Below, in pieces: positions 16,317-33,732 of a DNA stretch of 61,891 nt. Under the pieces are notes generated by a model. It saw nothing but the letters and a program-made list of their open reading frames with translations, was not told where the DNA came from and made no database searches. Origin of the DNA: Streptosporangiaceae bacterium (lineage in GTDB: Bacteria; Actinomycetota; Actinomycetes; Streptosporangiales; Streptosporangiaceae); NCBI GenBank assembly GCA_050012355.1, contig JBEKHI010000001.1, positions 1 through 61,891 of the forward strand. Direction: 5' to 3'. Each line of letters opens with the position of its first letter. Position 1 is the stretch's first letter. Made by a program: the position numbers and the translations under genes.

Positions 16317-16317
16317 C

Positions 16318-17790: not shown

Positions 17791-19886
17791 GCCCGGGCGG
17801 TCGGCCGGGGCTCGTTGACGCGACGGCGGGCGGGGCCGCGGCTGAAACCGTGCCGGGTGCTACCGCGCCCATCCGCCGTCCGCATGTTGTCGCGCTGAAC
17901 TTGATCAGGATGCTCATCATCGTGCTGGTGGTGGGCGTCCACACGCTGTCCGACGTCGGCGGGACGGTGACCCCGCTGCTCGGCGCGGTCACCACCGTTT
18001 TCCACACCAGCAGGGAACTGTTCTTCCTGCTCACGGCGTTCGTGCTCGTCTACAACTACGGGAAGCGCCCGAAGATCAAGTGGCCGTCGTTCTGGTGGCG
18101 GCGCTATAAGTTCGTCGTCCCGGCGTACGTCGCCTGGTCGGTCATCTATTTCCTCGCGGACGGCACCCGGTGGGACAACTGGCACGTCTTGCTGCATGAA
18201 CTGGAAACCGGCACCGCGCGCTACCACATGTACTTCCTGCTGGTCACCATGCAGGTCTACCTGCTATTTCCGGTGGTGCGCTGGCTGCTACGCGTGACGC
18301 AGCGCTATCACTGGGCGCTGTTCGGCGTGGTGTGCGCGTTCCAGGTCGTCTTTAGCTACGCGGTACACGAGGGGTGGAACGCGCCAGGGTTCATCGGCGC
18401 CTGGCTGCACGACCCGACGATGTGGGCGCCGAGCTACACGCTTTATGTGATCGGCGGGGCCCTCGTCGGCTGGCACTTCGAGGAAATCGCCGCGTTCACC
18501 CGGCGGCACATGCGGATGGCAGGCCTGGTGACGCTCGCCGGGCTGTGCGTCGGCATCGGCGTGTACTGCTTCGAGTGGCTGGTGGTCCACCAGACGCCTG
18601 CCGCGGCAAGCGCGGTGTTCCAGCCCATCGTGGTCATCGAGGCGCTGGCCTATGGCTGGGGGCTGCTGGCCCTCGGGCTGCACTGGTCAGACAAGGGCAC
18701 GCCGGGCCGGAAGCTGGCGGCCGCCGGAGCGGACTGCTCGTTCGGCATCTACCTCGCGCATCCGCTGCTGCTTCAGGGACTGGTGCTGGAGACCAGCCAC
18801 TACGGCGTGCTGTCCTGGATACGCAAGTCGCCGCCAGTGGTAGAGCTGCTCATCATGCTGCTAATCATCGTCCCGATCGTGTACCTCGGGGCGTGGGCGG
18901 TGACCTGGGTGCTGCGCAGGACGCCACTGAGCCTGCTGCTAACCGGGCGGTCCATGATCAAGCCCTGGCGCGGACGGCTATCAAGAATGCCGCGCGGGTC
19001 GAAACCGGTGCTCGCCGGGGCGGCACTGATGTGCGTAGCGATCCTCGGCGTCGGACTGTGGGCCGCGCGTGGCGCAAGCGGGACGACGTTCACCGCGACC
19101 CCGGCGGTCAAGATCAGCACGACGGTGCAGCAGTCAGGCTCGGTGAAGCTGGACAGAAGCGTCTACAAGATCAAGGTCGACGGGGTCACGCGGGAGTGGG
19201 TGCAGCTCACCCCGAGCACCGGAGTGAGCTCGTCAACGCCGATCATCATCGTGCTCCAGGGCGTGAACGCGACAACGAACTTGGAGATCAACCGCGACCA
19301 CCTGACCGGTTACGACGCCGAGTTGGTGTACCCGGTCCCGCTGTATGAGTCCTGGAACGCGGGCGGCTGCTGCGGCGAGTCGGCAACCAAGGATGTAAAC
19401 GACGTCGCGTTCATCGAGGCGCTGGTCGCCGCCGTCAACCCGGGGAACTCCCACGCGGTGACACTCGCCGGGTACAGCAACGGCGGACGGCTTACCTACC
19501 AGATCGCCTGCACCGATCCGACGCTGGTGGACAACTACGCGGTGGTCAAGGCCATGCCCGACGGATGCGTGGTCAGCAAGCGCATCACCATCCTGCAGAT
19601 CGACTCCACCGACGACACGAAGGTGCCGCTCAAACCCGGCGACAAGGGCTCGGAATCCCCGGCGGCGACAGTGGAGGTGTCCCGGCTGCGACAAGTCGAC
19701 GGGGCGACCGGCTCGGCCAAGGTGACAAACAAGGGCGCGCTGAACTTGTCGGTGTGGCAAGGCACCGACGGGAGCAAGGTGGAGTTCGCGGTGTACACCG
19801 GCGGCGGCCACAGCTTCCCGCAACCGACCGCGACTACCCCCTCAGCCGGCGCCCTGATCTACCAGCTCGCGTCTGGTTCCAGTTGA
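17787..19886 (+). CDS. membrane acyltransferase-3 domain fused to C-terminal alpha/beta esterase (PHB-depolymerase/LpqC-like)
   Basis: The N-terminal ~380 aa are polytopic and acyltransferase_3-like. The C-terminal part is extracytoplasmic with a GYSNGG nucleophile elbow. The GTGA start overlaps the ligase stop; the exact start is uncertain. Confidence 0.7.
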   Translation: MSPGGRPGLVDATAGGAAAETVPGATAPIRRPHVVALNLIRMLIIVLVVGVHTLSDVGGTVTPLLGAVTTVFHTSRELFFLLTAFVLVYNYGKRPKIKWPSFWWRRYKFVVPAYVAWSVIYFLADGTRWDNWHVLLHELETGTARYHMYFLLVTMQVYLLFPVVRWLLRVTQRYHWALFGVVCAFQVVFSYAVHEGWNAPGFIGAWLHDPTMWAPSYTLYVIGGALVGWHFEEIAAFTRRHMRMAGLVTLAGLCVGIGVYCFEWLVVHQTPAAASAVFQPIVVIEALAYGWGLLALGLHWSDKGTPGRKLAAAGADCSFGIYLAHPLLLQGLVLETSHYGVLSWIRKSPPVVELLIMLLIIVPIVYLGAWAVTWVLRRTPLSLLLTGRSMIKPWRGRLSRMPRGSKPVLAGAALMCVAILGVGLWAARGASGTTFTATPAVKISTTVQQSGSVKLDRSVYKIKVDGVTREWVQLTPSTGVSSSTPIIIVLQGVNATTNLEINRDHLTGYDAELVYPVPLYESWNAGGCCGESATKDVNDVAFIEALVAAVNPGNSHAVTLAGYSNGGRLTYQIACTDPTLVDNYAVVKAMPDGCVVSKRITILQIDSTDDTKVPLKPGDKGSESPAATVEVSRLRQVDGATGSAKVTNKGALNLSVWQGTDGSKVEFAVYTGGGHSFPQPTATTPSAGALIYQLASGSS

Positions 19887-20045: not shown

Positions 20046-20669
20046 GTGAGCGCACAGGTATTCATCCAGGAACGGGCCGCCGACCGGCTCGCCGAGCTGG
20101 ATCTGGCTGTGGAAATCTTGGAGCGCGTCATCCGGCGTGCCGACGCGGAAGCACAGATGTGCACGGCGTTCGACCCGCCGTTGCTCGAAGGACTGACCCG
20201 GTGGGGACGTGCGACGCGTTACCTGCGTGAAGAACTTGTCCCGCTTGGGTGGACCTACGACAACCCGCGCAACTTCGCCCGCACGATCCATCCTGATGGC
20301 GAGTTCGCGATCGTCGTTACGACTGGCGATGGCATGACTGGCCTGCCAGGCATGGTCCCCGGGACGAAGAACCCGAAGGGCCTAGCGACCATGCTCGCCG
20401 TGGACGCCAACGCGCAGCTGACGTTTGACTTCGGTCCGCAGTTCCTCCCGGCTGGTATGGACAAGGTCACCTGGTTCCTGCTGTTCTACGCCGATGGATT
20501 CGAGTACCGGGCGGAGCTCTCGCTGCCGGGTGGCTATTCAGACGGGATGATCACGCACTGGGACGAGCGGATCATCCTCCCGCCGTTCCAGCGCTACGAC
20601 CGACCAGCCGTTCCCTCCGATACGGAACCGCATCCGGATGTCGTTTTCGAGGTCGCGCCACGATCATGA
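20046..20669 (+). CDS. hypothetical protein (toxin position of a RosmerTA-like pair)
   Basis: 207 aa. GTG follows AAGGGGG. No family recognised. The stop overlaps the next start (ATGA at 20666-20669). Confidence 0.6.
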   Translation: MSAQVFIQERAADRLAELDLAVEILERVIRRADAEAQMCTAFDPPLLEGLTRWGRATRYLREELVPLGWTYDNPRNFARTIHPDGEFAIVVTTGDGMTGLPGMVPGTKNPKGLATMLAVDANAQLTFDFGPQFLPAGMDKVTWFLLFYADGFEYRAELSLPGGYSDGMITHWDERIILPPFQRYDRPAVPSDTEPHPDVVFEVAPRS

Positions 20670-21697
20670 TGACGCCGTCGCGGCTGACCCTGGCGCGGAA
20701 ACGGAGTGGCCTGACGCTCGCCAGGCTTGGCGAACTCGCGGAGCTGTCGGCCCGCAGCGTGTCCCTGTACGAGAACGGGCACAGCAGACCGTCCCCCGCC
20801 ACGCTTGCTCGGCTCGCCGAGGTGCTTGATGTACCGGAGAGCTTTCTCACCGGTGCCGACGTCGAGGACATCCCGGTTGGGGCGGTGAGTTTCCGCGCGG
20901 TCAGCAAGATGACAGCGCAGCAGCGCGATCAAGCGTTGTCCGCTGGCCGGGTAGCGCTGCTCATCGACGAATGGTTCGAGTCGCGCTTCATACTGCCCGA
21001 GCCGGACGTCCCGTCGCTGACCGGCTACGACCCGGAATCCGCGGCCGAGGTGGTCCGTGCCCGCTGGGGTATGGGTACCCGCCCGGTGCCGAACACGCTG
21101 CACCTCGCGGAGGCACACGGAACACGGATCTACTCGCTGACCCCGGAGAACGTCGCGCTCGACGCGTTCTCGCTGTACTGGGAGGGGCGGCCGTTCGTGT
21201 TCCTGTCGACCGGCAAGTCCGGCGAACGCGGTCGGTTCGACGTCGCGCACGAGCTTGGCCACCTGGTCCTGCACGGCGAGCACCAGCCGCTGCACCGGCC
21301 CGACGCGGAGGTCGAGGCGAACCGGTTCGCCGCGGCGTTCTTGATGCCGCGATCCAGCGTGCTCTCGGCCGGGCTACGCCACGCTGACGTCGACACGATC
21401 CTCGCGGCGAAGGCCACCTGGAAAGTATCCGCGCTCGCGCTCACTCACCGGCTCGCCGAGCTCGACCTGCTCACCGAATGGGGTTACCGCACCGCCTGCG
21501 TGAACCTGGCAAGGCTCGGCTACAAATCCGCTGAGCCGGGCGGTATCCCTCGTGAGTCCTCTCAGTTGCTGGCCAAGGTGTTCAAGGCGCTGCGCGATGG
21601 CGGCGAGACGCTTTCCTCGGTCGCCGCTGCCATAGGCATCAGCGCCGACGAACTGCGCGCCCACGTCTTCGGCCTCACCCTGATGTCCGTCGCCTAG
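20666..21697 (+). CDS. XRE-family HTH fused to ImmA/IrrE (M78, COG2856) zinc metallopeptidase
   Basis: N-terminal HTH (LTLARKRSGLTLARLGELAELSARSVSLYENGHSRPS) and a HEXXH motif (DVAHELGHLVLH) followed by EVEANRFAAAFLMP. Confidence 0.85.
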   Translation: MMTPSRLTLARKRSGLTLARLGELAELSARSVSLYENGHSRPSPATLARLAEVLDVPESFLTGADVEDIPVGAVSFRAVSKMTAQQRDQALSAGRVALLIDEWFESRFILPEPDVPSLTGYDPESAAEVVRARWGMGTRPVPNTLHLAEAHGTRIYSLTPENVALDAFSLYWEGRPFVFLSTGKSGERGRFDVAHELGHLVLHGEHQPLHRPDAEVEANRFAAAFLMPRSSVLSAGLRHADVDTILAAKATWKVSALALTHRLAELDLLTEWGYRTACVNLARLGYKSAEPGGIPRESSQLLAKVFKALRDGGETLSSVAAAIGISADELRAHVFGLTLMSVA

Positions 21698-21928: not shown

Positions 21929-23014
21929 ATGCCGGTCGAGGGCTTGGAAGAGTATGACAGTCCCGAGGTTCTCGACGCGCGACTTGACCACCAGCAGGTC
22001 ATCGACCGGCGCTCCTCGGACACTGATCGGCGGGCTGAGAACCGTGAGGTCGACTCTGCGGATACCCCAGAGAAGGATCCCGACGGTGGCTGGCGCTGGA
22101 AGAGCCTTGAGCTCTCACCCCAGGCCAACCGAGTTGCCGAAGCGGGACTCGCCCTACGCCGCCAGGCCGAAGGACGCGATGCCGATGGCAACTACACGGA
22201 CCGTGGCATCACCCCCGCGATGCGGCGCATCGAAGGAGACCTCGAACAAGGAAGCTTGGTCCCCGATACCGAGAAGTTCGCTCTCAAGTCCCCCGATCGC
22301 TTCAAAGAAAAGCTCGCGAAGATGGTGACGTTGGAGCCGGATGCATCAGTGGAGGAACTGGCCAGCAAAGTCCATGACGGCATCCGTTACACGTTCATAT
22401 TCGAGACGGCACGTTATGTGGAGGGTGTAGAGCGTGCGTGTGAGCTACTCGAAGGTAACGACTGTCAGCTTGTGGCATTCAAGCCAAGCTGGGATAGGGA
22501 AGAGTACAAGGGTGTGAACAGTCAGTGGCGCGATCGTGCAAGCGGAATTCTCTTTGAAGTGCAGTTTCACACCCCTGAGAGCTGGGTTGCCAAGCAGGCT
22601 ACTCACGACGCATACGAGATGATCGAGTCGCCGCTAACTACGACTGAGGAAAGGGTCCGTTTGCGTACATATCAGCGCGAAGTGTGCGAATCGGTTCCAG
22701 TTCCTCAGGGTGCCTTGGAACTCGAACCGTTCAGAGAGGAGCGAAAGTTAGCGATGTCAGATGCTGTGAATTACTACGCGGTAGTCGGGTTGGGGCGTAC
22801 GGCGGACAATCCTTCAGGGCTTGTCCGTCGTAGGCAAACGGCGGATGGTCCAGTGGATGAGTCCGTAAGCCGTGACCTGACGTGGGTATTCACCGATGCC
22901 ATTTACCAGTGGGAGCGGGGCGAGAACTTCGGTCCGGAACTCGTCGAGATTAGTGCGGGGGAGGCGGATGAGTTGATCGCTCGGTTCCGGGAGCGGTGGA
23001 GTCACGACGGTTGA
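21929..23014 (+). CDS. RelA/SpoT-homologue (small alarmone synthetase / toxSAS-like) fold protein with extra C-terminal domain
   Basis: Five ordered motifs sit at RSH-like spacing: LKSPDRFKEKL, HDGIRY, YKGVN, FEVQFHT, HDAYE. About 85 extra residues follow at the C-terminus. Third codon positions are visibly AT-richer than in neighbours. The start could be TTG 21899 or ATG 21929. Confidence 0.65.
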   Translation: MPVEGLEEYDSPEVLDARLDHQQVIDRRSSDTDRRAENREVDSADTPEKDPDGGWRWKSLELSPQANRVAEAGLALRRQAEGRDADGNYTDRGITPAMRRIEGDLEQGSLVPDTEKFALKSPDRFKEKLAKMVTLEPDASVEELASKVHDGIRYTFIFETARYVEGVERACELLEGNDCQLVAFKPSWDREEYKGVNSQWRDRASGILFEVQFHTPESWVAKQATHDAYEMIESPLTTTEERVRLRTYQREVCESVPVPQGALELEPFREERKLAMSDAVNYYAVVGLGRTADNPSGLVRRRQTADGPVDESVSRDLTWVFTDAIYQWERGENFGPELVEISAGEADELIARFRERWSHDG

Positions 23015-26000
23015 GCGAAGTGTGGCGGCGACTGGAGGGTGTGGACGCGTACCGGATCACTGAGATCCCGCGTCATGCCGCTCTCACATCTCCCACCGAT
23101 GATTCACGTGAATCATGGGGAGGAACCGACACCAACGATCATGGATGGGGGCAGCGCGTCGCCGCGCTCGCCGCTGCTTACCACGCTGGGGTGGCCGCTG
23201 GGGATGGCGTGATCGGGTTCGGCTGGATACGGCCTCAGCCGGCTGGTCCGGTGAACGTCGTGGCGGCCGGGAGGGCGCTCGCGGGATCCACGATCAACAG
23301 CGGCGAGATCATGCTCGCCCTTCCTGGCGGAGCGCGGGGACGTCCGCTGGCCGACCTTACCGAACTACTCGCGAGCCTGCCCGCCTGGCGGGAGATCGCC
23401 GGGATCAGCGACGGGCTACTGAACGAGGAGCCCCGCAGGACGCGGCTCGCCACCAGCTTGGATGACGTACTGCTTGGGAGCTGGGTCGCGCCGTTCGGGT
23501 GGATGGTGATCGCCGAGCCGGTACCACCACCGGAGCTGCGAGCGCTGGCCGACGATACAGCGGCCAGGCTGCATCTGACTGAGAGCACCGCCGACCGGTT
23601 CCCCGGGCGCGCGTTGGACGCGCGGCGGCTCAAGCACCGGCTGGTCGAGCTGCGGCGCGCGTTTTCCACAGGGCTGTGGAAAGTGCGACTTCTGGCCGGC
23701 GGGACGGACGAGGCGGCCGCGGCACGGGTGGCGGGGCTGTTTTGCGCCTCGGTGGATCTGGGGGATCTGCCGTATGCGATCGCGCCCGCGTCTCCCGTTC
23801 CCGCTGGAACGTCGGACGCGGCCCGAGACGGCGCGGCGCCGGAACCGACCGCACCATTCTGTGCCGCCACCGAGTTCGTCGCGGCGGTCGCGGCGCCGCC
23901 TCGCGCTGAGATACCGGGTATCCGGCTCGTTCTGCGGCCCGAATTCGACACGACGCCAGAAGCGTCCACAGCCGGGATCCTGCTCGGTGAGATCCGGGAT
24001 CGGAACATGATGCCCGCGGGGGTCTTCCGTATCGGGCACGACTCGCTGAACCGCCATGTCTTCGTGACCGGGGCGACCGGCGCGGGTAAGTCGCAGACGA
24101 TCCGCGGCCTGCTTGAGCGATCCGCTGTCCCGTGGCTGGTGATCGAGCCCGCCAAGGCCGAGTATCGCTACCTGGCGAACCGCCTGGAGCAAGACGTTAT
24201 CCGCATCCGTCCCGGCGAGCCCGACGCTATCCCCGCTGGCCTCAACCCGCTCGAGCCCGCCCCCGGCTTCCCGCTCCAGACCCACGCCGATTTCACCAGA
24301 GCGCTGTTCGTGGCCGCCTTCCGTTCAGAGGAGCCTTTTCCACAGGTACTGTCGGCCGCGCTCACCCGCGCTTACACCCAGGCGGGATGGGACTTGGCGC
24401 TGGGCGAGCCCGCCAGCGACGGAGCACGCTACCCCACACTGGCCGACCTGCAACGAGCGGCTGAGCTCGTCGTGGCGGAGATCGGTTACAGCCAGCGGGT
24501 CACCGACGACGTACTCGGCTTCATGAAGGTCCGCCTGGCCAGCCTCCGGCACGGGACGACGGGGCGGTTTCTCGCGGGCGGGCACCCGATCGACTTCGAG
24601 AAGCTGTTGACAAGCAACGTCGTGCTGGAGATCGAGGACGTCGGAGACGATCGCGATAAAGCCTTTCTGATGGGGACCGTGCTGATCAGGCTGGCCGAGC
24701 ACCTGCGGGTACGAGGCCAGCAGGACGGCCTGCGGCACCTGACGATCGTCGAGGAGGCGCATCGGCTGCTGCGCAAGTCCCGTGACGACGGCGCCGCCGC
24801 GCACGCGGTGGAGATGTTCGCGAGCCTGCTGTCGGAACTGCGCGCCTATGGTGAAGGGCTGATCATCGCCGATCAGATCCCGGCCCGGCTGGTACCCGAT
24901 GTCATCAAGAACACCGCGGTGAAGATCGCGCACCGGCTGCCCGCCTCGGACGACCGCGACGCGGTGGGCGCCACCATGAACCTCAGCGCCGCGCAATCAC
25001 GGTATCTCGTCACCTTGGCGCCGGGGGAGGCCGCTGTGTTCACGGATGGGATGGACAACCCGCTGCTGGTGAAAATGCAAGATCACGCAGAACGAGAGCG
25101 GGCGCGTCCCCCGGTCACCGCGTCGGCCGCCGCGATAGTCAGCCGCCGTGGTCCCGTTTGCGGCGCGGACTGCGTGGCACGTCCGTGCACGCTCCGCGAC
25201 ATGAGTAACGCCGGGCGCGGGCTGGAAACAAGACCGGCCGTCCGGTTGTGGACAGAACTAACGGTGCTGGCCCACCTGGCGGGCTGGCCGATGCCGGTTC
25301 CGCGGATGGCGATCTTGGAGGATCTTCGCGCGCTGCCGCCCCGGTTGCGGGACTGCCTGATCTCGCACGCGGTGGATGAGGCGATCAGCTCGCGGGCCGG
25401 GATTCCGGATGCGACGGGGCTAGTCGTGCACGTTGGCACCGCGATCAGATGCCGGGTCACCCGGGACATGTGGCTCTGCCAGGCCGACGAACCAAGGTGG
25501 CACCGAGAAGCTGTGGATAACGTCGCGTCGTTTGGCATAGCTAAGCCGTCGGTGGTGGAGCGGACCGTCGGCGCGCTACGGACGGACGCGACGTACGGCC
25601 AGCGGCTGGCCGACGCGCTTGAGGACTTCGCCGACTGCCGCTGGCCGCTGGATTACCTGTCGTTACGACGACTTACTGAAGTGGATCCGGCCATCCTTGA
25701 TGGCGGTTGTGTCCTGGACGCGCGTGGCGGTTACCTTCGAGCCGCTGACCTGCGCCTCCACCATGACGCTATCGCCGGACTTGACCGACCCGATGCCTGC
25801 CGTTTTCGTGTCGACGGTGATGGAACTGCTCACCGCGTAGGTCGCGGTGTAGCCATCGGCGCTCTTGATCGTCAGCGAGGAGGAGCTGACCGCCGTGACG
25901 GTGCCCTGCTGCACATCGACAGTCTCGTAGGTGCCATTCTTCTCACGGATGGTCACCTGGCCATGCACCACCCCGCCGAGGCCGAACCCGCCCCCGAAGC

Positions 26001-26070
26001 CGTGACCGCGGGAGTGTCGGCCGTGGTGCTTGCCAGTCGGGGCGGAAGCCGATGCGCTGGGAGTAGCTGA
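22996..26070 (+). CDS. HerA/FtsK-superfamily (DUF87-like) ATPase with large N- and C-terminal extensions
   Basis: Walker A HVFVTGATGAGKSQT (about 24070-24093), LVIEPAKAEY, Walker B LTIVEEAHRLL (about 24745-24762) and GEGLIIADQIPARL...NTAVKIAHRL. The GTG start overlaps the previous gene by 19 nt. The last ~135 codons run antisense through the convergent gene, so the true C-terminus is uncertain. Confidence 0.75.
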   Translation: MESRRLSEVWRRLEGVDAYRITEIPRHAALTSPTDDSRESWGGTDTNDHGWGQRVAALAAAYHAGVAAGDGVIGFGWIRPQPAGPVNVVAAGRALAGSTINSGEIMLALPGGARGRPLADLTELLASLPAWREIAGISDGLLNEEPRRTRLATSLDDVLLGSWVAPFGWMVIAEPVPPPELRALADDTAARLHLTESTADRFPGRALDARRLKHRLVELRRAFSTGLWKVRLLAGGTDEAAAARVAGLFCASVDLGDLPYAIAPASPVPAGTSDAARDGAAPEPTAPFCAATEFVAAVAAPPRAEIPGIRLVLRPEFDTTPEASTAGILLGEIRDRNMMPAGVFRIGHDSLNRHVFVTGATGAGKSQTIRGLLERSAVPWLVIEPAKAEYRYLANRLEQDVIRIRPGEPDAIPAGLNPLEPAPGFPLQTHADFTRALFVAAFRSEEPFPQVLSAALTRAYTQAGWDLALGEPASDGARYPTLADLQRAAELVVAEIGYSQRVTDDVLGFMKVRLASLRHGTTGRFLAGGHPIDFEKLLTSNVVLEIEDVGDDRDKAFLMGTVLIRLAEHLRVRGQQDGLRHLTIVEEAHRLLRKSRDDGAAAHAVEMFASLLSELRAYGEGLIIADQIPARLVPDVIKNTAVKIAHRLPASDDRDAVGATMNLSAAQSRYLVTLAPGEAAVFTDGMDNPLLVKMQDHAERERARPPVTASAAAIVSRRGPVCGADCVARPCTLRDMSNAGRGLETRPAVRLWTELTVLAHLAGWPMPVPRMAILEDLRALPPRLRDCLISHAVDEAISSRAGIPDATGLVVHVGTAIRCRVTRDMWLCQADEPRWHREAVDNVASFGIAKPSVVERTVGALRTDATYGQRLADALEDFADCRWPLDYLSLRRLTEVDPAILDGGCVLDARGGYLRAADLRLHHDAIAGLDRPDACRFRVDGDGTAHRVGRGVAIGALDRQRGGADRRDGALLHIDSLVGAILLTDGHLAMHHPAEAEPAPEAVTAGVSAVVLASRGGSRCAGSS

Positions 26071-26247
26071 GGCGGACAACGACGATGTCGTGGTCGCTGC
26101 TGGCGCTGGGTGGTTCGTGGCCGCAAAGGCGACTCCGGTACCGGCGACTACCGCGACGAGCGCGACGCCACCTACCACCATGGGTCGGGTGCGGCGGTGG
26201 CCGCGGCGACCGGAAAGCTCGATCTGATCGGTTTCCTGTTCATCCAT
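25663..26247 (-). CDS. membrane-anchored secreted protein, unknown function
   Basis: An N-terminal TM segment (MVVGGVALVAVVAGTGVAFA), a Ser/Thr/Ala linker, a His/Gly-rich stretch and then a beta-rich domain (VTIREKNGTYETVDVQQGTVTAVSSSSLTIKSADGYTATY). The start could be ATG 26247 or TTG 26268. Confidence 0.65.
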   Translation of the reverse strand: MDEQETDQIELSGRRGHRRTRPMVVGGVALVAVVAGTGVAFAATNHPAPAATTTSSLSASATPSASASAPTGKHHGRHSRGHGFGGGFGLGGVVHGQVTIREKNGTYETVDVQQGTVTAVSSSSLTIKSADGYTATYAVSSSITVDTKTAGIGSVKSGDSVMVEAQVSGSKVTATRVQDTTAIKDGRIHFSKSS

Positions 26248-26368
26248 GCGTACAAGGTCGGGGCCCAAGTTAAGGGGAATCTGCGGGTTAGTGAAGAATT
26301 CCCTCTGATATCTTGATCTGCGAAGAAAGTGCTGGTAGAGGCGATCTCATTAACAAGATGTTACGCAG

Positions 26369-26456: not shown

Positions 26457-27995
26457 TCACTTGAGAGGTTGCAGCTCAGGCGCGGTGGCCGACGTCTCCG
26501 AGGTGCTTGACCGCCATCCCCAGCGCCCGGTTATGCACAGCCACACGAGCGCGATGACCGCGATGAGCCGCGCGACGGACGTTATCCACTCTCCCTCGAC
26601 GTGCTGGAGCTGCGCGAGGTGGGTGTGGCCCGGGATGTTAACCGCGTCCATGTAGGTGATGCCCGCGAAACCAAGCCGGCCGAGAACCACCCAGTCCAGA
26701 CGCGACGCCGGATACAGCGCCAGCAGCCCGATGATCATCACGTCGTACCAGGGCCGCTGGAATGGCCACAGGAAAATCCAGGCCAGGCTTAGCGACAGCG
26801 CCAGCGGCACCGCGGGCCAGCGCGGGCTCCGTTGTGGCAAGCGCATTATGAGCAAAACGGCGAGAGCTACTGTCAGCACGGCCGCGATATCGGTCAGGCG
26901 GTTCGGCTCGTAAGTGGCGTTCAGGTTGAACGGCCGCCAGAACACCTGGTACAGGTTGTCCCAGGTCACGCCGTTCCCTCGCTTGAAGTACACGGTGACG
27001 GCGCCTGTCCCGGCCACCGCGAAGCTCGGGACTGCCACGATGAGGCAACCGGCCGCCGCGGCCGCGAATGCCGCGAGCTGGCGGCGTAGCATCCAGGCGG
27101 CCCCGATCGCGTAGACGGCGAAGGGCAGCTTCACGCAGATCGCTACGCCGATGAGCACACCCGCGATGGCGGCCCGTGCCAGGCCAACGGACTCGGCGGG
27201 CGCACTGTCCGGCGTACCAGGCCGCTTTGTCCAAAGCAGACCGATGCCGGCTAGGCCGAAGGCAACGGCCAGCCCGTCGATGTGACCGGCGGCCACAATC
27301 TCCCAGATCAGCAACGGGTTCAGCGACCACAGCAGGTGAGCGCGCCGCCGCATCACGGCGTCCGCGCGCAGCAGCCAGTCGAGGAGCAAGACAACCGCGC
27401 CGAAGGACAGACCTGCCCACAGCTTCAGCCAGAAGGTCATCGTCGCCAGCTGTCCGCCGCTGAGCTTGACGGCCAGCCACTCCGACGCGGTGGCCAGCGG
27501 CCCGTAGTCGGACAGGGACTGCCGCCAGGTGGGCGAGGAGTACTGCGCGATCGTGCCGCCGACCTTCAAGAACTGGTCCGGCGTCATCACGTACGGGTTG
27601 TGGCCCGCGACCACCATAGACCCGTCAATCGCGTATGAAATGGCGTCGGTCGACCCAGCGGGCAACAGCACGGTGAATATCGCCGTCGCGCCGAGGGAGA
27701 CGCCGATCATCAGCTTGATGCTCGGCCTGGCGCCCCTGGCGACGGCGACCAGCCCGAAGATCACCCCCGCGGTGGCGATGACCGCGGCCGCCCACAGCGA
27801 CAGCAAGATCAAGGTATCCCGCAGGTGCAGCGGGTGCCACCACGGCGGGCCAGAGCCCGCGTGCTTCAGCGCCTCGGCGATCACTGACGGGCCGTTCAAC
27901 GCCATCACGAACATGATCAGCAGCGACAGGCCGATGCACGCCGCGGCCGCCCAGCAGAGGGCACGAGTGCTCCTCGCGGGAGCGTCGCTTGTCAT
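26457..27995 (-). CDS. polytopic membrane protein, GT-C-type glycosyl/mannosyltransferase-like (DUF2029/GT87-like, tentative)
   Basis: 512 aa with at least 10 hydrophobic helices. The architecture resembles actinobacterial polyprenol-phosphate-sugar-dependent transferases. No catalytic motif was verified. Confidence 0.45.
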   Translation of the reverse strand: MTSDAPARSTRALCWAAAACIGLSLLIMFVMALNGPSVIAEALKHAGSGPPWWHPLHLRDTLILLSLWAAAVIATAGVIFGLVAVARGARPSIKLMIGVSLGATAIFTVLLPAGSTDAISYAIDGSMVVAGHNPYVMTPDQFLKVGGTIAQYSSPTWRQSLSDYGPLATASEWLAVKLSGGQLATMTFWLKLWAGLSFGAVVLLLDWLLRADAVMRRRAHLLWSLNPLLIWEIVAAGHIDGLAVAFGLAGIGLLWTKRPGTPDSAPAESVGLARAAIAGVLIGVAICVKLPFAVYAIGAAWMLRRQLAAFAAAAAGCLIVAVPSFAVAGTGAVTVYFKRGNGVTWDNLYQVFWRPFNLNATYEPNRLTDIAAVLTVALAVLLIMRLPQRSPRWPAVPLALSLSLAWIFLWPFQRPWYDVMIIGLLALYPASRLDWVVLGRLGFAGITYMDAVNIPGHTHLAQLQHVEGEWITSVARLIAVIALVWLCITGRWGWRSSTSETSATAPELQPLK

Positions 27996-28094
27996 GGGTA
28001 CGAAGGTACCGTCAATCGGGCGCTTCCCGGGCGAGCGCGAACTTGTTATCGTTAATTGAGTTGGCGCCCGGACCCGCGCGGACGCGCACCACTA

Positions 28095-28667
28095 ATGGGG
28101 GGTGCTATGTCCACGAGGGTTGCCGGACGCGTCAAGTGGCGCAGGTTCGCGGTTGCCATTCTGCCTGCACTCGCCGTCGCCGGGTTGCTGATGGGGCTGA
28201 CCGCCGAGGGGGCGATAGCCGCCAGCATCTCGGTCTCCGGCCAGGAGTTCATGGTGACCGCTGCCCAGCTCACCGGCTCTGGTTTCCAGCAATACCCAGG
28301 CCAGGTGACCGTGGACGGAGCCGACGGCTCGAAGACCACGGTGCCGGTGATCGTGTCCATTATCCACAGTGCCACGCTGACGAATATGTGCCAGAGCGTG
28401 ACCGTCGCCGGGGTCACGCTGCGACTGACCGCCGGCGGGGGCGCCGCCCCGGTCTCGGCTAGCGACCTCATCGTCGACGCCGCCAAGCTGAACGGCAACA
28501 GCGCCAGCTTTCAGAACGTCGTGATCGGGGCCGACGCAGGTGGCGGCACTTTCGGCGAGCAGGCCGACGACGTCATTATCGCCAACCTGCGGCAAGATAC
28601 CTGGCTGACCACCGCTGGCACCTTTACCCTGCCGGACCTGTCGCTGGGCTTCGGCTCCGGTTGTTAA
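28095..28667 (+). CDS. secreted/TM-anchored hypothetical protein (DUF6230-like, tentative)
   Basis: N-terminal anchor (WRRFAVAILPALAVAGLLMGL) followed by a beta-rich domain. The start is ATG 28095 or 28107. Confidence 0.5.
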   Translation: MGGAMSTRVAGRVKWRRFAVAILPALAVAGLLMGLTAEGAIAASISVSGQEFMVTAAQLTGSGFQQYPGQVTVDGADGSKTTVPVIVSIIHSATLTNMCQSVTVAGVTLRLTAGGGAAPVSASDLIVDAAKLNGNSASFQNVVIGADAGGGTFGEQADDVIIANLRQDTWLTTAGTFTLPDLSLGFGSGC

Positions 28668-29155
28668 GCCAGGTGGGCCTTGCTGCCCTGTCGGCGAAAA
28701 CCGTTGACATCCTGCGCCTCGCCAGTCGCCTGCGCGGGCACCGCTGCCTGATCGTCCGTGCTGGACTTCTCCGCCTCAGCGGTGGCGTCGGAGTAGCGCT
28801 TGCGGACGGCGAAGCCAGCGGCGGCGCCAGCCGCGCCGAGAGCCACCACGACGGCTGCTAGAACCCGCCAGTTCATGAGGCCACGCATTCGCGACTGCTG
28901 CTCGGGGCGGACGACCTCGGCGCCATGGCGCAGGGTCGAAGTCAGCCGTGGCGTGATCGAGGTCTCCACCACATCGGCGAAGCCCTCGAGCCGCGGCGCG
29001 CTCCACCGGCGAGCGTGATGCACGCCGCGCTGGACCTGATTAGCCGCTGCCGCCCCGGCACGCTGCCCGGCCGGTACGGCCACGACGACGGCGCCACGAG
29101 CGCGGCCGGCGATGCCACCATTCTGAAGTGCACGCTTTGCCTTGCTTTGGGACAC
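28664..29155 (-). CDS. membrane protein with C-proximal TM helix (positional equivalent of mycobacterial CwsA, divergent from ppiA)
   Basis: 163 aa with one TM segment (WRVLAAVVVALGAAGAAAGFAV). It is divergent from ppiA, as Rv0008c is from Rv0009. Sequence similarity was not verified. Confidence 0.45.
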   Translation of the reverse strand: MSQSKAKRALQNGGIAGRARGAVVVAVPAGQRAGAAAANQVQRGVHHARRWSAPRLEGFADVVETSITPRLTSTLRHGAEVVRPEQQSRMRGLMNWRVLAAVVVALGAAGAAAGFAVRKRYSDATAEAEKSSTDDQAAVPAQATGEAQDVNGFRRQGSKAHLA

Positions 29156-29277
29156 GGTTTACCTCCCGTTCTTGATCCCGCTCACCACAGACTTCCCGAT
29201 GCGGAGCCGTTCAACCATCTTCCGTCGCGCTACGGGTACCGTGGGTGGGCAACGACACTTACCTGAGGAGTCATGGC

Positions 29278-29796
29278 ATGACGGAGACGCTGACCGCGAC
29301 GCTCGCGACGACGCAGGGCGCGATCAAGGTCCGGCTTTTCCCCGACCACGCCCCGAAGACGGTTCGTAACTTCACCGATCTCGCCGAGGGCAAGCGGGAG
29401 TGGACCCACCCGCGGACACGGGCTACCAGCAGTGACAAGCTTTACGACGGAACCGTTTTTCACCGGGTCATCGACGGCTTCATGCTCCAGGGCGGCGACC
29501 CGCTGGGCACCGGAACCGGGGGGCCGGGCTACCAGTTCGGCGACGAGATTCACCCTGACCTGCAGTTCGACCGGCCTTACCTGCTCGCGATGGCGAACGC
29601 CGGCCCCGGCACGAACGGGTCGCAGTTCTTTATTACGGTGGCGCCCACGCCCTGGCTGAACGGGCGGCACACGATCTTCGGTGAGGTCATCGAAGGATCG
29701 GACGTGGTAGACGCCATCGGCAAGACGAAGACCGGCCCCGGCGACCGCCCGGTTCAGGACGTCGTCCTGCAATCGGTGACAATCGCTCGCGAATAA
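29278..29796 (+). CDS. ppiA: cyclophilin-type peptidyl-prolyl cis-trans isomerase
   Basis: FHRVIDGFMLQGGDPLGTGTGGPGY, MANAGPGTNGSQFFIT and HTIFGEV. GAGGAG lies 7 nt upstream of the ATG. Confidence 0.9.
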   Translation: MTETLTATLATTQGAIKVRLFPDHAPKTVRNFTDLAEGKREWTHPRTRATSSDKLYDGTVFHRVIDGFMLQGGDPLGTGTGGPGYQFGDEIHPDLQFDRPYLLAMANAGPGTNGSQFFITVAPTPWLNGRHTIFGEVIEGSDVVDAIGKTKTGPGDRPVQDVVLQSVTIARE

Positions 29797-29813
29797 GCCG
29801 GATACTTAGTTAC

Positions 29814-30686
29814 ATGTCCGAACCCCTCGCGGAACCGGTCCCGACCTGCTACCGCCACCCAGGCCGCGAAACCTACGTCTCATGCACCCGCTGTGGCCGT
29901 CACGCCTGCCCTGACTGCATGCGCAGCGCCTCGGTAGGCCAGCAGTGCGTGGAGTGTGTCCGCGAGGGGAGCCGGTCATCCCGGGCCGCGCGTACCGCGT
30001 TCGGCGGGCGTCCGGTGTCGGGCGCCGTGGTCACCTGGGTCCTGGTGGGGCTCAACGTCTTGGTCCTGCTGATCTCGCTGGCGAACTCCAACGTCATCGT
30101 CGACCTGGAGATGTTCGGCTATGCGGCGGTCGCCCCCGGCGGCGCGATGCAGGGGGTCGCCGCTGGCCAGTGGTACCGGCTAGTCACCTCGGCCTTCACC
30201 ACGCCAGGCGTGTCCGGGATCGGGTTCATGGACATCCTGTTCAACATGTGGGCGCTGATCTTCGTCGGCCCCTCGCTGGAAAAGATGCTCGGCCGGAGCC
30301 GCTATCTATCGCTGTACTTGCTGAGCGCGATCGGCGGGTCCGTCCTGTACTACTGGATGGTCGCGGGCAACCAGCCGGCCGCCGGGGCGTCGGGCGCCAT
30401 CTTCGGTCTGTTCGGGGCCTGGTTTGTGGTGTCCAAGCGGCTGCGGCTTGACTCCCGCGGCATCGTCTTGCTGATCGTCATCAACCTGGCGTTCAGCTTT
30501 ATCTACCACAGCACAATCGCCTGGCAGGACCACATCGGCGGCCTGGTGACCGGTGCCCTGGTCACCGCCGCGTTCGTCTACGCGCCGCGAAAGAACCGGA
30601 CCGCTATCCAGATAGCGGCGGGCGTCGCCATGCTGGCGATCCTTGTCATCGCGACGGTGCTCAGGTCACACCAACTGACAAGCTGA
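29814..30686 (+). CDS. rhomboid-family intramembrane serine protease with N-terminal zinc-ribbon
   Basis: CYRHPGRETYVSCTRCGRHACPDC, the catalytic GASGAIFGLFG and a downstream His (WQDHIGGLVTG). Confidence 0.85.
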   Translation: MSEPLAEPVPTCYRHPGRETYVSCTRCGRHACPDCMRSASVGQQCVECVREGSRSSRAARTAFGGRPVSGAVVTWVLVGLNVLVLLISLANSNVIVDLEMFGYAAVAPGGAMQGVAAGQWYRLVTSAFTTPGVSGIGFMDILFNMWALIFVGPSLEKMLGRSRYLSLYLLSAIGGSVLYYWMVAGNQPAAGASGAIFGLFGAWFVVSKRLRLDSRGIVLLIVINLAFSFIYHSTIAWQDHIGGLVTGALVTAAFVYAPRKNRTAIQIAAGVAMLAILVIATVLRSHQLTS

Positions 30687-30943
30687 CCGGATAAGCGCCA
30701 CTGGGTCGCTAGCACCACGCTGGCGATGATCAATGCGAATCCGCCCACCAGATTCCACGCGCCAAGCGTGGACAGCACCGGCATGTCGGCCTGCGTGACG
30801 TAGTACAGGACGATCCACACCAGCCCCAAGAGAAGGCAGCCCACCATTGTGGGGGCTATCCACGGCGCGCTGACCTTGCGCTTCGCCGCTTTCGTCGGCG
30901 GCGGCGTGTAAACAGGCTTCTTCCTGACGCGGGACTTCGGCAC
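30578..30943 (-). CDS. crgA: cell-division membrane protein CrgA (C-terminally extended reading frame)
   Basis: GTG start giving (M)PKSRVRKKPVYTPPP, two TM helices and ...ATQWR. The frame has no stop there. It continues for 38 more codons and overlaps the rhomboid 3' end by 109 nt. Confidence 0.75.
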   Translation of the reverse strand: MPKSRVRKKPVYTPPPTKAAKRKVSAPWIAPTMVGCLLLGLVWIVLYYVTQADMPVLSTLGAWNLVGGFALIIASVVLATQWRLSGQLVSWCDLSTVAMTRIASMATPAAIWIAVRFFRGA

Positions 30944-31050
30944 CGGGTACCTCGCTAGAGTTTGCGGAATCTTCGGGGCATAAGCGTAGCGGGTCGGTCC
31001 GTGCATATCATCCACGCCGTCAGTTACTTAGCGATATCATTCAGTTACTC

Positions 31051-31713
31051 ATGCGACCTATCCTTCGTTTCTGTGGTGAGATGTGCCTGACGGCGGGCGT
31101 CATCGGCCTGCTGTTCGTCGGCTACCTGGTGTGGGGGACGAGTACGCACACGGCGGCTGTCCAGCGTCGGTTCGCCGCCGAACTCAATCACCAATGGCAT
31201 GCCGCGTCACCGGCCTCCAGTTGCTCGTCGTCCGGCGCAGACGCTCGCGTGCCCGCTGACCCCATCCATCTGGTGTCCTCGCAGCCCTTCGCGTTCATCA
31301 GGATCCCCGCGTTCGGTTCGAATTGGCGATTCACGGTCATCCAGGGGACTTCGCTGACACAGCTCGATACGTCCCCTGGGCACGTGCCAGGCACGCAACT
31401 GCCTGGGCAGGTGGGTAACTTCGTGGTCGCCGCGCACCGGGTCACCGCAGGAAACCCGTTCTGGTCACTGCCCTCGCTGCGAGCCGGAGACGTGGTGTGC
31501 ATCGACACCGAGTACAACACCTACGTCTACCGGGTCACTGGGGCGCCGGTGCTGGTTTCCCCCAGCGACGTGGCCGTCCTCGCCCCGGTCCCCGGTGACC
31601 CCGATGCGCGCCCGACGCGACCGCTGATCACGCTGATCACCTGCGACCCGCCCTGGACCGGCACTCACCGGGTCATCGTGACCGGTCAACTCGTGGAGGT
31701 GAAACCTCGCTGA
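31051..31713 (+). CDS. class E sortase
   Basis: N-terminal TM segment, VVAAHRVT and the TLITC active-site motif (LITLITCDP). Confidence 0.85.
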   Translation: MRPILRFCGEMCLTAGVIGLLFVGYLVWGTSTHTAAVQRRFAAELNHQWHAASPASSCSSSGADARVPADPIHLVSSQPFAFIRIPAFGSNWRFTVIQGTSLTQLDTSPGHVPGTQLPGQVGNFVVAAHRVTAGNPFWSLPSLRAGDVVCIDTEYNTYVYRVTGAPVLVSPSDVAVLAPVPGDPDARPTRPLITLITCDPPWTGTHRVIVTGQLVEVKPR

Positions 31714-31871: not shown

Positions 31872-31895
31872 CCGGCGAAGCCCGCAAGTGAACTA

Positions 31896-33707: not shown

Positions 33708-33732
33708 TGCGCCAAACCACCAATACTCGATC

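Follow-up and report, generated by a model that had tools for sequence, protein, structure and literature searches.

A predicted alarmone synthetase toxin, its presumed small protective partner and a VirB4/HerA-type ATPase in an actinobacterial locus

Sequence comparisons revealed that the locus under study encodes a predicted alarmone synthetase toxin, a presumed small protective partner and a VirB4/HerA-type ATPase, and that the unit is made up of three parts, not two. The relatives of these genes suggest an uncharacterised actinobacterial toxin-trafficking system, not an established phage-defence pair. The explanation that we favour, and hold with roughly even confidence, is that the locus is the toxin-immunity cassette of a polymorphic toxin system in which a VirB4/TrwK-like ATPase is the conserved core. 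The original prediction had located ORF A at 21899/21929..23014 and ORF B at 22996..26070 on the forward strand with a 19-nt overlap, which was borne out. The following features were found in the window (the whole stretch of 61,891 nucleotides that was analysed).

21929..21958, forward strand: N-terminal toxin leader (M-P-V-E-G-L-E-E-Y-D), with an acidic stretch of low conservation after it
21929..22753, forward strand: predicted alarmone-synthetase (SYNTH) toxin of the Apk1/Tas1-SaEAS branch, assigned by homology
~22274-22750, forward strand: catalytic core of the synthetase, with D150 at 22376-22378 and E210 at 22556-22558
22737..22753, forward strand: fusion junction, from the alignment of the relatives' DNA and sequence reading
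22754..23014, forward strand: 86-aa small protein, predicted immunity protein or antitoxin, forming the C-terminal domain of the fused ORF
22996..25662, forward strand: VirB4/TrwK-like P-loop ATPase of the DUF8350 family, from profiles, Foldseek and motifs
22996-23985, forward strand: N-terminal domain of the ATPase
23986-25095, forward strand: ATPase core, with Walker A at 24070-24099 and Walker B at 24745-24762
~25108-25662, forward strand: Cys-containing C-terminal domain of the ATPase
25663..26070, forward strand: 3' end of the 1024-aa ORF, unlikely to be functional ATPase coding sequence

Residues 128-275 of gene A matched the sequence of the SaEAS crystal structure (PDB 8vx3) with an E-value of 8.7e-24, residues 85-276 matched the C-terminus of the XopAD effector (5.9e-24), and a MuF-toxin PHROG also matched the synthetase (3.9e-11). 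The RSH-type motifs first noticed in gene A are real and far beyond chance; the Pfam RelA_SpoT family (PF04607), proposed as the search model, gave no match to gene A. Upon alignment, D121, R124, N169, E182 and Q184 of SaEAS corresponded to D150, R153, N197, E210 and Q212 of gene A, and five of the six named catalytic residues were strictly conserved. The substitutions that had been taken as unusual (A-L-K, N for H, ExQxHT) are present but are features of the clade: the N and FEVQFHT are common to gene A and SaEAS, and ALK does not vary among 35 relatives. Between the two possible starts of the 361-371-aa protein, ATG 21929 is likely and the other less so, because the relatives open with the same M-P-V-E/D-G motif. 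By homology, gene A is an Apk1/SaEAS-type alarmone synthetase, a toxic-SAS-type enzyme with 1198 homologues. We infer that it is toxic because of this homology and its intact catalytic residues; residues 1-275 would act as a pyrophosphokinase and poison the cell through uncontrolled production of (p)ppApp and/or (p)ppGpp.

The exported alarmone synthetases, including Apk1/Tas1 and SaEAS, belong to the same SYNTH-fold branch and share the catalytic residues and FEVQFHT with gene A, and in apk1-tis1 the synthetase is followed by a small gene, as in the relatives of the window. In contrast, the window toxin lacks a Sec signal peptide and any WXG/LXG, PAAR/Rhs, MuF or DUF4157 domain, carries a short M-x-V-D/E-G/R leader instead, and is fused to the small protein. 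Ahmad et al. 2025 found that Streptomyces synthetase homologues adjoin TrwB/TrwK/TrwI-like genes, with the TrwK-like neighbour given in one sentence, and that the Streptomyces 'cluster A' lacks signal peptides (PMC12691689); the same-clade protein A0A3D5DQS5 is present in their data set. The combination, not known to the original prediction as a described system, is not entirely undescribed; the ATPase family, the leader and the presumed cognate 86-aa protein lay outside the analysis of that paper.

The ~85 C-terminal residues of gene A, previously regarded as an extension, are present but correspond to a separate gene of 84-86 aa in relatives. An alignment with the DNA of four relatives that retain the stop codon mapped a 1-nt insertion, which fuses the small gene to the synthetase here and shifts the ancestral stop TAG (22749-22751) into another frame; direct reading of the sequence revealed AGGAG at 22737-22741, 12 nt ahead of an internal ATG at 22754. 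The identical fusion was found, with no further damage, in the independent metagenome protein P0001 (96% identity). Since the small gene lies 3' of the synthetase in all 64 of the 64 related loci with room, its product probably serves as the cognate immunity protein or antitoxin, and the small gene is kept at four loci whose synthetase has a frameshift or has lost its core (L010, L019, L052 and L064). The small-protein family is narrow (106 matches, without annotation), and the fold was confidently predicted as a β-sheet with a C-terminal helix. The invariable linkage, the retention upon toxin decay and the natural fusion argue that the 86-aa protein would bind and neutralise the synthetase toxin, and support the reading of the C-terminal appendage as a neutraliser-like module.

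In the window and one close relative, the insertion has tethered the presumed immunity protein to the toxin, and the window copy may be self-neutralised or work as a fused toxin-antitoxin. Two points here count against a polymorphic toxin system: a covalently tethered toxin would be a poor weapon if exported, and no interface could be read from the structure model of the fused protein, which was of poor quality. It is unlikely that the window genome carries only a decaying relic, in which the toxin is neutralised for good by the frameshift fusion and retained immunity is the sole function. The insertion as the origin of the fusion, the relatives with a damaged synthetase and a kept small gene, and the reading on of the ATPase ORF into a convergent gene are consistent with decay; however, the catalytic residues and the invariant ATPase positions are intact, the fusion recurs undamaged in P0001, and an internal ribosome-binding site with its ATG is still present.

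Modules of a toxic alarmone synthetase and an antitoxin have an established role in abortive infection (PMC7229694, PMC9712102). The toxSAS modules (FaRel, PhRel, CapRel; PMC7229694) likewise combine an SAS toxin with an adjacent neutralising gene product, CapRel-SJ46 (PMC9712102) has toxin and neutraliser on one polypeptide like the fused ORF, and one related locus encodes an HD-domain hydrolase, which recalls SAH-type antitoxins. Unlike toxSAS, the window synthetase belongs to the Apk1/SaEAS-like branch, the small protein does not detectably resemble known antitoxin domains, and window-type loci contain a third conserved gene, that of the ATPase. The window fusion also differs from CapRel-SJ46 in that it arose recently through an accidental 1-nt change and is not typical of the family.

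Walker A (G359-T368) and Walker B (I584-H589) of the ATPase were invariant in 49 relatives, and all invariant positions are intact here. The motifs reported earlier thus stand, but the full 1024-aa coding length does not: from ~25650 the codon-position GC signal shifts to a convergent minus-strand ORF, the majority of relatives stop close to residue 889, and approximately 889 of the 1024 residues look coding, the remaining tail probably not being functional coding sequence. PADLOC HerA and mad8 and NCBIfam CedD/HerA gave partial matches near 1e-15, the HerA models covering only the C-terminal half of the core, and Foldseek ranked TrwK/VirB4 first (3e-9), with SIR2-HerA at 1e-5 and DndH also among the structural matches. 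From these profiles and models, the ATPase is a soluble P-loop protein that is closest to VirB4/TrwK with HerA ranked lower, and its earlier description as HerA-like is only partly retained. The family (Pfam DUF8350) is large, with 2522 representative clusters at E<=1e-30, and relatives carry the PF27615 annotation. The ATPase showed no hydrophobic segment, which counts against export.

The ATPases of this clade that serve defence systems, such as DndH and SIR2-HerA, also count against a polymorphic toxin system and fit a possible, though doubtful, alternative of anti-phage abortive infection, the idea of the original prediction. Here the ATPase would sense infection or remodel the toxin-antitoxin complex, freeing the synthetase toxin, or others with the same docking leader, and arresting the infected cell, and the fused C-terminal domain would be an autoinhibitor comparable to that of CapRel-SJ46. 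The partial HerA and mad8 matches and the fused ORF in two independent sequences agree with this, as do the Rosmer defence system directly upstream of the cassette (PADLOC) and the type II methylase or 'ABC-three component system' gene near related loci, which weigh against the favoured reading. On the other hand, Rosmer adjacency is limited to this window and the relative nearest to it, neither the synthetase nor the small protein is matched by a PADLOC model, the synthetase lies in the exported Apk1/SaEAS branch, and a single distant ATPase homologue was found among viral contigs. SIR2-HerA and DUF4297-HerA share the ATPase superfamily, the partial HerA profile matches, the 1e-5 structural likeness and an adjacent enzymatic effector with the window, but in window-type loci the ATPase and effector are not obligate neighbours, the effectors have immunity genes, and VirB4 is structurally closer to the ATPase.

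The neighbourhood census that had been proposed showed that the linkage of cassette and ATPase is conserved. The ATPase is directly downstream of the cassette in 35 of the 44 loci with room and upstream in one further contig (sampled twice), and the synthetase and small gene occur without it in 8 of the 44. Conversely, only 21 of 80 ATPase loci contain the cassette, and in ~70% no synthetase accompanies the ATPase, which often occupies a syntenic chromosomal site beside crgA, pknB and a GT87 gene. This argues against the anti-phage alternative and, with the toxins having their own small genes, against the two-gene HerA-plus-effector pair of the SIR2-HerA kind that was originally predicted. It also bears on an improbable reading, in which an autonomous type II toxin-antitoxin (addiction) cassette inserted into a hotspot upstream of an unrelated housekeeping ATPase, without a functional link. 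Loci with only the pair or only the ATPase are in line with such a cassette, as is its foreign codon composition relative to the ATPase gene (the synthetase has low GC3), and Rosmer or a methylase in the region suggests an insertion hotspot. In contrast, the start and stop overlap at ATPase-linked loci, and the tight linkage (overlap or 3 nt) recurs in different genera and on either side of the ATPase gene.

Further evidence against an independent addiction cassette, and for a polymorphic toxin system, comes from the N-termini. The motif M-x-[VAT]-[DE]-[GR]-x(1-3)-[DE], scanned across the genes of ATPase loci, was present in 12 of 16 synthetase genes and 6 of 8 zeta-toxin genes and in only 6 of ~740 other genes of >=100 aa, five of which encode further leader-bearing, toxin-like proteins at the same loci. 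A second match in the window, at 9471 on the reverse strand, was dismissed because it is not acid-rich, leaving 21929 as the only credible one. Leader type correlated perfectly with ATPase linkage (Fisher exact p ~1e-6, hand-computed): 26 loci had the M-x-V-D leader and the ATPase, six had an HPSSP-type N-terminus without it, and none was mixed; five further loci had an N-terminus of neither type (four with the ATPase, one without).

Five different toxin families adjoin the same ATPase, each toxin with its own downstream small gene or genes. A zeta toxin with a 100-aa ORF begins 3 nt past the ATPase stop at five loci, and in three Actinoallomurus loci a zeta toxin lies upstream with a PHP gene between. 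An ADP-ribosyltransferase with a 134-aa ORF was found on S. clavuligerus pSCL4, a RelA_SpoT-type toxin with a 94-aa ORF and an HD_4 hydrolase in S. antimycoticus, and a lipase-like toxin with an ankyrin protein in Nocardia; these three toxins also carry the leader beside homologous ATPases. Unrelated toxins with one leader and their own small genes at the same ATPase are the hallmark of a polymorphic toxin system. Variable effectors with a constant ATPase are known in defence systems too, but a dedicated small gene for every toxin, including the ankyrin protein, and disordered linkers of 100-450 residues on unrelated leader-bearing toxins speak against an anti-phage role. Long disordered linkers are typical of trafficked toxins. 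We infer that the leader (M-x-V/A/T-D/E-G/R) and acidic linker would label the toxin as a client for the ATPase encoded downstream, which would spend ATP passing leader-bearing toxins into an export or delivery pathway that serves competition between bacteria.

The polymorphic toxin reading has counterparts in the T7SS LXG toxins with EssC/YueA (PMC3482391) and the bacteria-killing X-T4SS with VirB4/VirD4 (PMC6759196), where a constant N-terminal trafficking element is joined to variable C-terminal toxins, the immunity gene comes immediately after the toxin, a pumping ATPase of the FtsK/HerA superfamily, to which the window ATPase also belongs, is linked in the genome, and orphan or decayed copies occur. 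The window differs from both: the toxin lacks both a WXG/LXG domain and a C-terminal XVIPCD signal, and the ATPase, which contains a single P-loop domain, lacks a TM segment and carries a novel DUF8350 domain at its C-terminus. Genes resembling VirB3, VirB6, VirB8, VirB10 or EssA/EssB, or other T4SS parts, were not found in any locus examined, and at most one 2-TM membrane partner (F13) was present. The F13 profile had no match near the ATPase in the window or in Trebonia-type loci, where no channel or membrane component was found. In Streptomyces, Nocardia, Nonomuraea and a Pseudonocardiaceae MAG, F13 shares the strand of the ATPase gene and lies 5' of it; in Actinomadura, Spirillospora and Actinoallomurus, F13 is a neighbour encoded on the opposite strand. 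An M48 peptidase is also sometimes encoded at ATPase loci.

The two open reading frames were found at the positions predicted for them, on the plus strand with a 19-nt overlap, and all of the motifs quoted in the original prediction were present. The features of the operon are as follows.

21899 (TTG) or 21929 (ATG) to 23014, plus strand: ORF A (gene A), a predicted alarmone-synthetase toxin fused to an 86-aa small protein
22737-22741, plus strand: intact AGGAG ahead of the small gene, from the sequence
22749-22751, plus strand: ancestral TAG stop, now out of frame, from the sequence and alignment
22754, plus strand: intact ATG of the small gene, from the sequence
22996 (GTG) to 26070, plus strand: ORF B (gene B), an ATPase
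25663-26268, minus strand: convergent 201-aa ORF with a weak DUF5666 match (E 1.8e-4); a homologue lies downstream of the ATPase in one related locus (L007)

Because relatives of gene A begin at an equal M-P-V-E/D-G motif, ATG 21929 was taken as its start and TTG 21899 was rejected; gene A residue numbers are counted from this Met.

Gene A had been assigned to the RelA/SpoT-homologue fold from its motifs. A Pfam search at E<=0.01 returned no match, PF04607 RelA_SpoT included, but PDB and NCBIfam matches upheld the assignment. Residues 128-275 matched the crystallised SaEAS sequence (PDB 8vx3, deposited under the name 'SaSAS'; E 8.7e-24), residues 85-276 matched the C-terminus of the XopAD type III effector (NCBIfam, E 5.9e-24), and a PHROG of MuF-fused phage toxins was also matched (3.9e-11). 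SaEAS, which Streptomyces albidoflavus exports, is an alarmone synthetase that produces (p)ppGpp and (p)ppApp and is highly toxic when retained in the cytoplasm; its named active-site residues are D121, R124, K154, N169, E182 and Q184 (Ahmad et al. 2025, PMC12691689). In the alignment, D121, R124, N169, E182 and Q184 corresponded to D150, R153, N197, E210 and Q212 of gene A, and for the sixth residue, K154, the gene A Lys was shifted by two positions (K185). The motif residues were invariant among 35 relatives, including A-L-K in place of R-x-K, so the substitutions pointed out in the original prediction are characters of the clade and not signs of decay. Judged from its sequence, gene A is a small alarmone synthetase of the Apk1/SaEAS branch with the RelA/SpoT-homologue SYNTH fold. 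Homology and the catalytic residues predict a pyrophosphokinase, with (p)ppApp, (p)ppGpp or pyrophosphorylated tRNA as candidate products. Gene A differs from the exported alarmone synthetases of Ahmad et al. 2025 in having no Sec signal or targeting domain: a search for a hydrophobic segment found none, and thus no Sec signal peptide, and Pfam revealed no recognised secretion-targeting domain over residues 1-127. Only a short shared leader was present at the N-terminus.

The operon had been described as a two-part unit, and comparison with relatives revealed three parts, with the C-terminal 86 residues of gene A forming a separate gene. Three genes were present both in the closest relative, a soil MAG contig syntenic with the window, and in one more distant relative, encoding a synthetase of 271-273 aa, a small ORF of 85-86 aa and an ATPase of 1002-1008 aa. 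Alignment of the junction DNA showed that the window carries a 1-nt insertion approximately 10 nt ahead of the ancestral stop. The same 361-aa fusion was found in an independent metagenome protein (P0001, 96% identity) and is therefore a real allele rather than a sequencing error. In both, the toxin and its putative neutralising domain make up one polypeptide.

The small-protein family was narrow (106 hits, all of approximately 84-86 aa and unannotated), and nothing was matched in Pfam, NCBIfam, PADLOC or PHROGs. AlphaFold2 predicted a β-sheet with a C-terminal helix, confidently for this domain (pLDDT 85-97). The model of fused gene A, built on a mixed alignment in which MAFFT misaligned the two families, was poor outside the small domain (pTM 0.35, synthetase core pLDDT <50), and Foldseek with this model found no structural neighbor below E 0.2. 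We predict from the sequence data that the 86-aa protein is the cognate immunity protein, or neutraliser, of the toxin. The window holds a natural 'Rosetta-stone' fusion between a toxin and its predicted neutraliser, which is direct genetic evidence for their interaction and a snapshot of a possible origin of fused toxin-antitoxin proteins such as CapRel-SJ46. As in CapRel-type proteins, toxin and neutraliser share a single polypeptide, but here it is derived by a 1-nt insertion, and an indirect comparison through Pfam, NCBIfam, PADLOC, PHROG and Foldseek revealed no homology of the small domain to the CapRel antitoxin/sensor domain.

A synthetase-anchored metagenome scan returned 80 loci. The small ORF was present in all 64 with at least 300 nt downstream of the synthetase. 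Among the 44 with 700 nt or more downstream, the ATPase followed the small ORF directly in 35; another contig, which was sampled twice, carried the ATPase upstream (36/44 overall). The predicted neighborhood association was frequent when viewed from the cassette (synthetase plus small gene) and infrequent when viewed from the ATPase. The ATPase-anchored search matched 215 GTDB species, from which 80 loci were kept (Trebonia and other Streptosporangiales, Actinoallomurus, Actinomadura, Nonomuraea, Spirillospora, Amycolatopsis and Pseudonocardiaceae); the cassette occurred in only 21 of these 80, 71 of which had enough upstream sequence to be informative. Many Trebonia-type genomes carried a lone ATPase among conserved genes for a GT87 glycosyltransferase, a PPIase, a rhomboid protein, CrgA and PknA/B.

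Some copies of the cassette were decayed. The synthetase matches were split over three frames in L010, L019 and L052, where the small ORF had 83 of its 86 residues matched in L019, and is thus essentially intact there, but was only partly matched in L010 (64) and L052 (37), and in an Actinoallomurus locus (L064:4460-5944) the synthetase catalytic core was deleted and its remnant fused in frame to an intact small protein. Such retention of the small ORF in decayed cassettes is typical of an immunity gene. Third-codon-position GC was 0.58-0.73 in the cassette (21929-23014) and 0.80-0.87 in the ATPase (23200-25600), and the cassette is thus compositionally foreign to the ATPase gene, which suggests that it was gained separately and recently. 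A search around the operon revealed no flanking repeats that would mark a mobile cassette, and a promoter and terminator scan of the same region gave nothing above shuffled expectation.

Gene B had been presented as a 1024-aa HerA-like ATPase. The ATPase motifs were confirmed, with Walker A (G359-T368), Walker B (I584-H589) and many positions of both the 330-residue N-terminal domain and the C-terminal domain invariant among 49 relatives; the C-terminal domain has conserved cysteines (C722, C726, C731, C787, C828 and C881). The HerA matches (PADLOC, NCBIfam) were restricted to residues ~543-700 rather than the full length, Pfam DUF87 and HerA_C fell below threshold for gene B itself, and its relatives matched PF27615 (DUF8350) together with weak DUF87/HerA_C matches. 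The best whole-core match was VirB4 (4ag5; phmmer, E 7e-7, residues 326-685), whereas HerA proteins aligned over residues ~570-700 only. An AlphaFold2 model of residues 1-889 (pLDDT 72) had TrwK/VirB4 of plasmid R388 (7o43_B, 3e-9) as its top Foldseek match and 4ag5 next (TM 0.63, normalised to the target), followed by DndH-C, Cag-beta, SIR2-HerA (1e-5) and TrwB (1e-4). As modeled, the ATPase is VirB4-like in fold rather than a typical HerA. No hydrophobic segment was found in it. The length of 1024 aa appears to be overstated: from approximately nt 25650, the codon-position GC signal moves to the frame of the convergent minus-strand ORF, which overlaps the ATPase ORF by ~400 nt, and the relatives mostly end near residue 889, so the last ~135 residues are probably not functional. 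The family comprised 2522 representative clusters at E<=1e-30 (50% identity clusters), and a literature search for DUF8350 found no paper that mentions it. Viral contigs yielded one distant (32%) ATPase relative and nothing else.

Other toxins were found beside homologous ATPases. In five loci, a protein of 450-560 aa ending in a zeta-toxin domain started 3 nt past the ATPase stop and, where the sequence continued, was followed by an ORF of ~100 aa; in three Actinoallomurus loci, a zeta and small ORF pair lay upstream of the ATPase with a PHP-family gene between them. Three annotated plasmids had an equivalent layout.

S. clavuligerus pSCL4: 2-TM protein, then ATPase, ADP-ribosyltransferase (PF03496, 2e-24) and a 134-aa ORF, with overlaps among these three genes
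S. antimycoticus plasmid: 2-TM protein, then ATPase, a 664-aa protein ending in a RelA_SpoT domain, a 94-aa ORF and an HD_4 hydrolase
Nocardia plasmid: 2-TM protein, then ATPase, a 725-aa protein whose C-terminus is lipase-like (GHSLG) and a protein with ankyrin repeats

The downstream partner thus varied with the toxin (ORFs of 86, 100 and 134 aa, a 94-aa ORF with HD_4, or an ankyrin protein), and the HD_4 hydrolase probably provides immunity as a small alarmone hydrolase. At this S. antimycoticus locus (NZ_CP108859.1, L166:8958-11829), the 664-aa protein is a second, canonical-type RelA_SpoT toxin with a disordered linker of ~450 residues. A gene annotated as 'zeta toxin family protein' at a plasmid end of Streptomyces sp. 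NBC_00708 (L168:5680-7221) was found to be a chimera of a zeta-toxin N-terminal domain and the C-terminal third of a DUF8350-type ATPase, probably a product of rearrangement near the plasmid terminus.

These toxins share a short N-terminal leader, M-x-[VAT]-[DE]-[GR], which is common to synthetase, zeta, ADP-ribosyltransferase, RelA_SpoT-type, lipase-like and unknown domains.

MPVEGLEE: gene A in the window
MSVDRLDDDD and MATDRPARAD: synthetases
MSVDRVTDPRDD: zeta toxin
MSTDRETI: ADP-ribosyltransferase
MSIDFTKRLD: lipase-like toxin

In each toxin, the leader was followed by 50-450 disordered residues that were acidic or proline-rich. A longer common N-terminus, '...RRPPPDxPG...PSRA[DE]SRAGAAAAN', was present on a synthetase, zeta toxins and an unknown toxin of Actinoallomurus and Actinomadura. 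The regular expression for the leader matched 12 of the 16 synthetase genes and 6 of the 8 zeta genes. Of the ~740 remaining genes of 100 aa or more in the ATPase loci it matched only 6, five of which encode further leader-bearing toxin-like proteins. Gene A was the only credible match in the window; a second match at 9471 (minus strand) was dismissed, as it is not acid-rich. In 6 of 8 synthetase loci without the ATPase, a different, longer N-terminal extension with the motif 'RLERLPPGHPSSPY' was found. The type of N-terminus followed ATPase linkage, with Fisher's exact p ~1e-6 for the two defined classes (computed by hand).

N-terminal type and ATPase linkage, counted in loci with a complete N-terminus and at least 700 nt downstream
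M-x-V-D leader: 26 with the ATPase, 0 without
HPSSP-type extension: 0 with the ATPase, 6 without
Neither pattern: 4 with the ATPase, 1 without

In the metagenome loci L123, L141, L142, L143, L151 and L163, which lack the ATPase, the motif reads 'RLERLPPGHPSSPY.DDGSRKP'. This extension had no match in Pfam and may be a second trafficking or regulatory element.

The 2-TM protein family, referred to here as F13 (570-800 aa), adjoins the ATPase in Streptomyces, Nocardia, Nonomuraea and a Pseudonocardiaceae MAG, where it lies ahead of the ATPase on the same strand, and in Actinomadura, Spirillospora and Actinoallomurus, where it lies on the opposite strand. Examples are as follows.

L165:7026-8822: F13
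L166:3832-5544: F13
L167:3623-5542: F13
L061:844-3225, minus strand: F13

Each has two TM helices at the N-terminus, then a globular middle region, a stretch rich in Ser, Thr and Gly, and finally a C-terminal domain that is conserved. A profile search found no F13 in the window or in Trebonia-type loci. By sequence or profile, F13 had no match of any function in Pfam, NCBIfam, PADLOC or PDB and no detectable homology to VirD4/TrwB. A weak similarity to anthrax protective antigen, in its Ser/Thr-rich pore loop (E 0.5-1), was dismissed as compositional and not significant. An M48-family (HtpX-like) peptidase gene was found beside F13 and the ATPase in L063, L076, L081 and L083, which derive from Pseudonocardiaceae, Spirillospora and an uncultured Actinomycetota MAG (L076). 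The peptidase might process the leader-bearing toxins, or its gene might simply be a neighbor.

The combination had been thought undescribed, although a one-line observation that some alarmone synthetases adjoin TrwK-like genes has been published (Ahmad et al. 2025, PMC12691689), with a data set that includes a member of the gene A clade (A0A3D5DQS5). Beyond that paper, the present analysis defines the family to which the ATPase belongs, the leader, the small cognate protein and the broader set of toxins. Neither Zhang 2012 nor Kaur 2020 describes this ATPase-toxin system. Four traits together mark a polymorphic toxin system (Zhang et al. 2012, PMC3482391): a constant N-terminal element, a variable C-terminal toxin, a toxin-specific downstream gene and genomic association with an FtsK/HerA/VirB4-superfamily ATPase. 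As these four traits occur together here, with the toxin-specific gene directly downstream, we regard the locus as a polymorphic toxin system with an uncharacterised trafficking core, of which the secretion step is what we infer. We favor as the best explanation a toxin-immunity cassette in which the VirB4-like ATPase would have the toxin as its client, probably for export or delivery. Against export stand the lack of a channel component in the window, where a VirB4/TrwK-like ATPase directly downstream of the synthetase is the only secretion component seen, and the lack of canonical T4SS genes in any locus: no VirB3/6/8/10, VirD4 or relaxase gene was found within +/-6-10 kb of the ATPase in the 80 genome loci and the plasmids. 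The operon therefore shares with type IV secretion the VirB4-like ATPase fold and not the accompanying genes. The fused allele would also be a poor weapon if exported.

In a more far-reaching reading, which we consider somewhat doubtful, the DUF8350 ATPase, with F13 in many genera, would be the motor of a hitherto uncharacterised pathway of toxin export or delivery in mycelial Actinobacteria. It would recognise the short N-terminal M-x-V/A/T-D/E-G/R leader, and its cargo would comprise alarmone synthetases, zeta kinases, ADP-ribosyltransferases and lipases for interbacterial antagonism. Such a pathway would be a new secretion route apart from Sec, Tat, T7SS and canonical T4SS. If the coupling is functional, it points to unstudied toxin trafficking by soil actinomycetes, with a core ATPase family of ~2,500 representative clusters (50% identity) that has no literature, a toxin repertoire like those of T6SS and T7SS, and a simple, testable client signal through which this possible actinobacterial pathway can be examined directly.

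The surroundings of the operon bear on the immune role first proposed for the pair.

14505-19886, plus strand: cluster of genes in the same direction, some of them overlapping, that the closest relative also has
20046-20669, plus strand: RmrT of a Rosmer system (PADLOC E 5.8e-54)
20666-21697, plus strand: RmrA of the Rosmer system, an HTH and M78 peptidase protein (PADLOC E 3.1e-137)
26457-34900: downstream neighborhood with GT87/MptA-like glycosyltransferase, PPIase, rhomboid, CrgA, sortase and PknA/B-like kinases

With a complete Rosmer system directly upstream of the toxin gene, the operon might act in abortive infection. This reading is a live rival: a methylase or 'ABC-three component' gene lies near some related loci, ATPases of the same clade also serve defense, as the Foldseek neighbors show, and the fused toxin-neutraliser resembles CapRel-SJ46. 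The coupling of the two genes is real, but the immune role is not the best supported one, since the ATPase is usually found by itself at a syntenic site, every toxin is followed by a small gene or genes of its own, the toxin linkers are long and disordered, the synthetase belongs to an exported branch, and PADLOC models matched neither the toxin nor the small protein, nor the zeta and unknown toxins. Compared with SIR2-HerA and DUF4297-HerA, gene B has no full-length HerA-model match, and ATPase and effector do not co-occur obligately (synthetase in 21/80). Were the defense reading true, the loci would represent a new family of abortive-infection systems in which an ATPase controls exchangeable effectors. 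The Rosmer genes adjoin the operon only in the window and its closest relative (L001/L004), and Rosmer and operon as one larger system was rejected, as relatives such as L003 have the operon without Rosmer.

The downstream neighborhood was conserved in many ATPase loci. In Actinobacteria, the crgA-pknB region belongs to the core genome and lies near the origin, which places the operon in a core part of the chromosome rather than on an obvious mobile element. The cluster at 14505-19886 encodes a histidine phosphatase, a phosphosulfolactate synthase (ComA), a glyoxalase-fold protein, an AMP-binding enzyme and a 699-aa acyltransferase_3 membrane protein.
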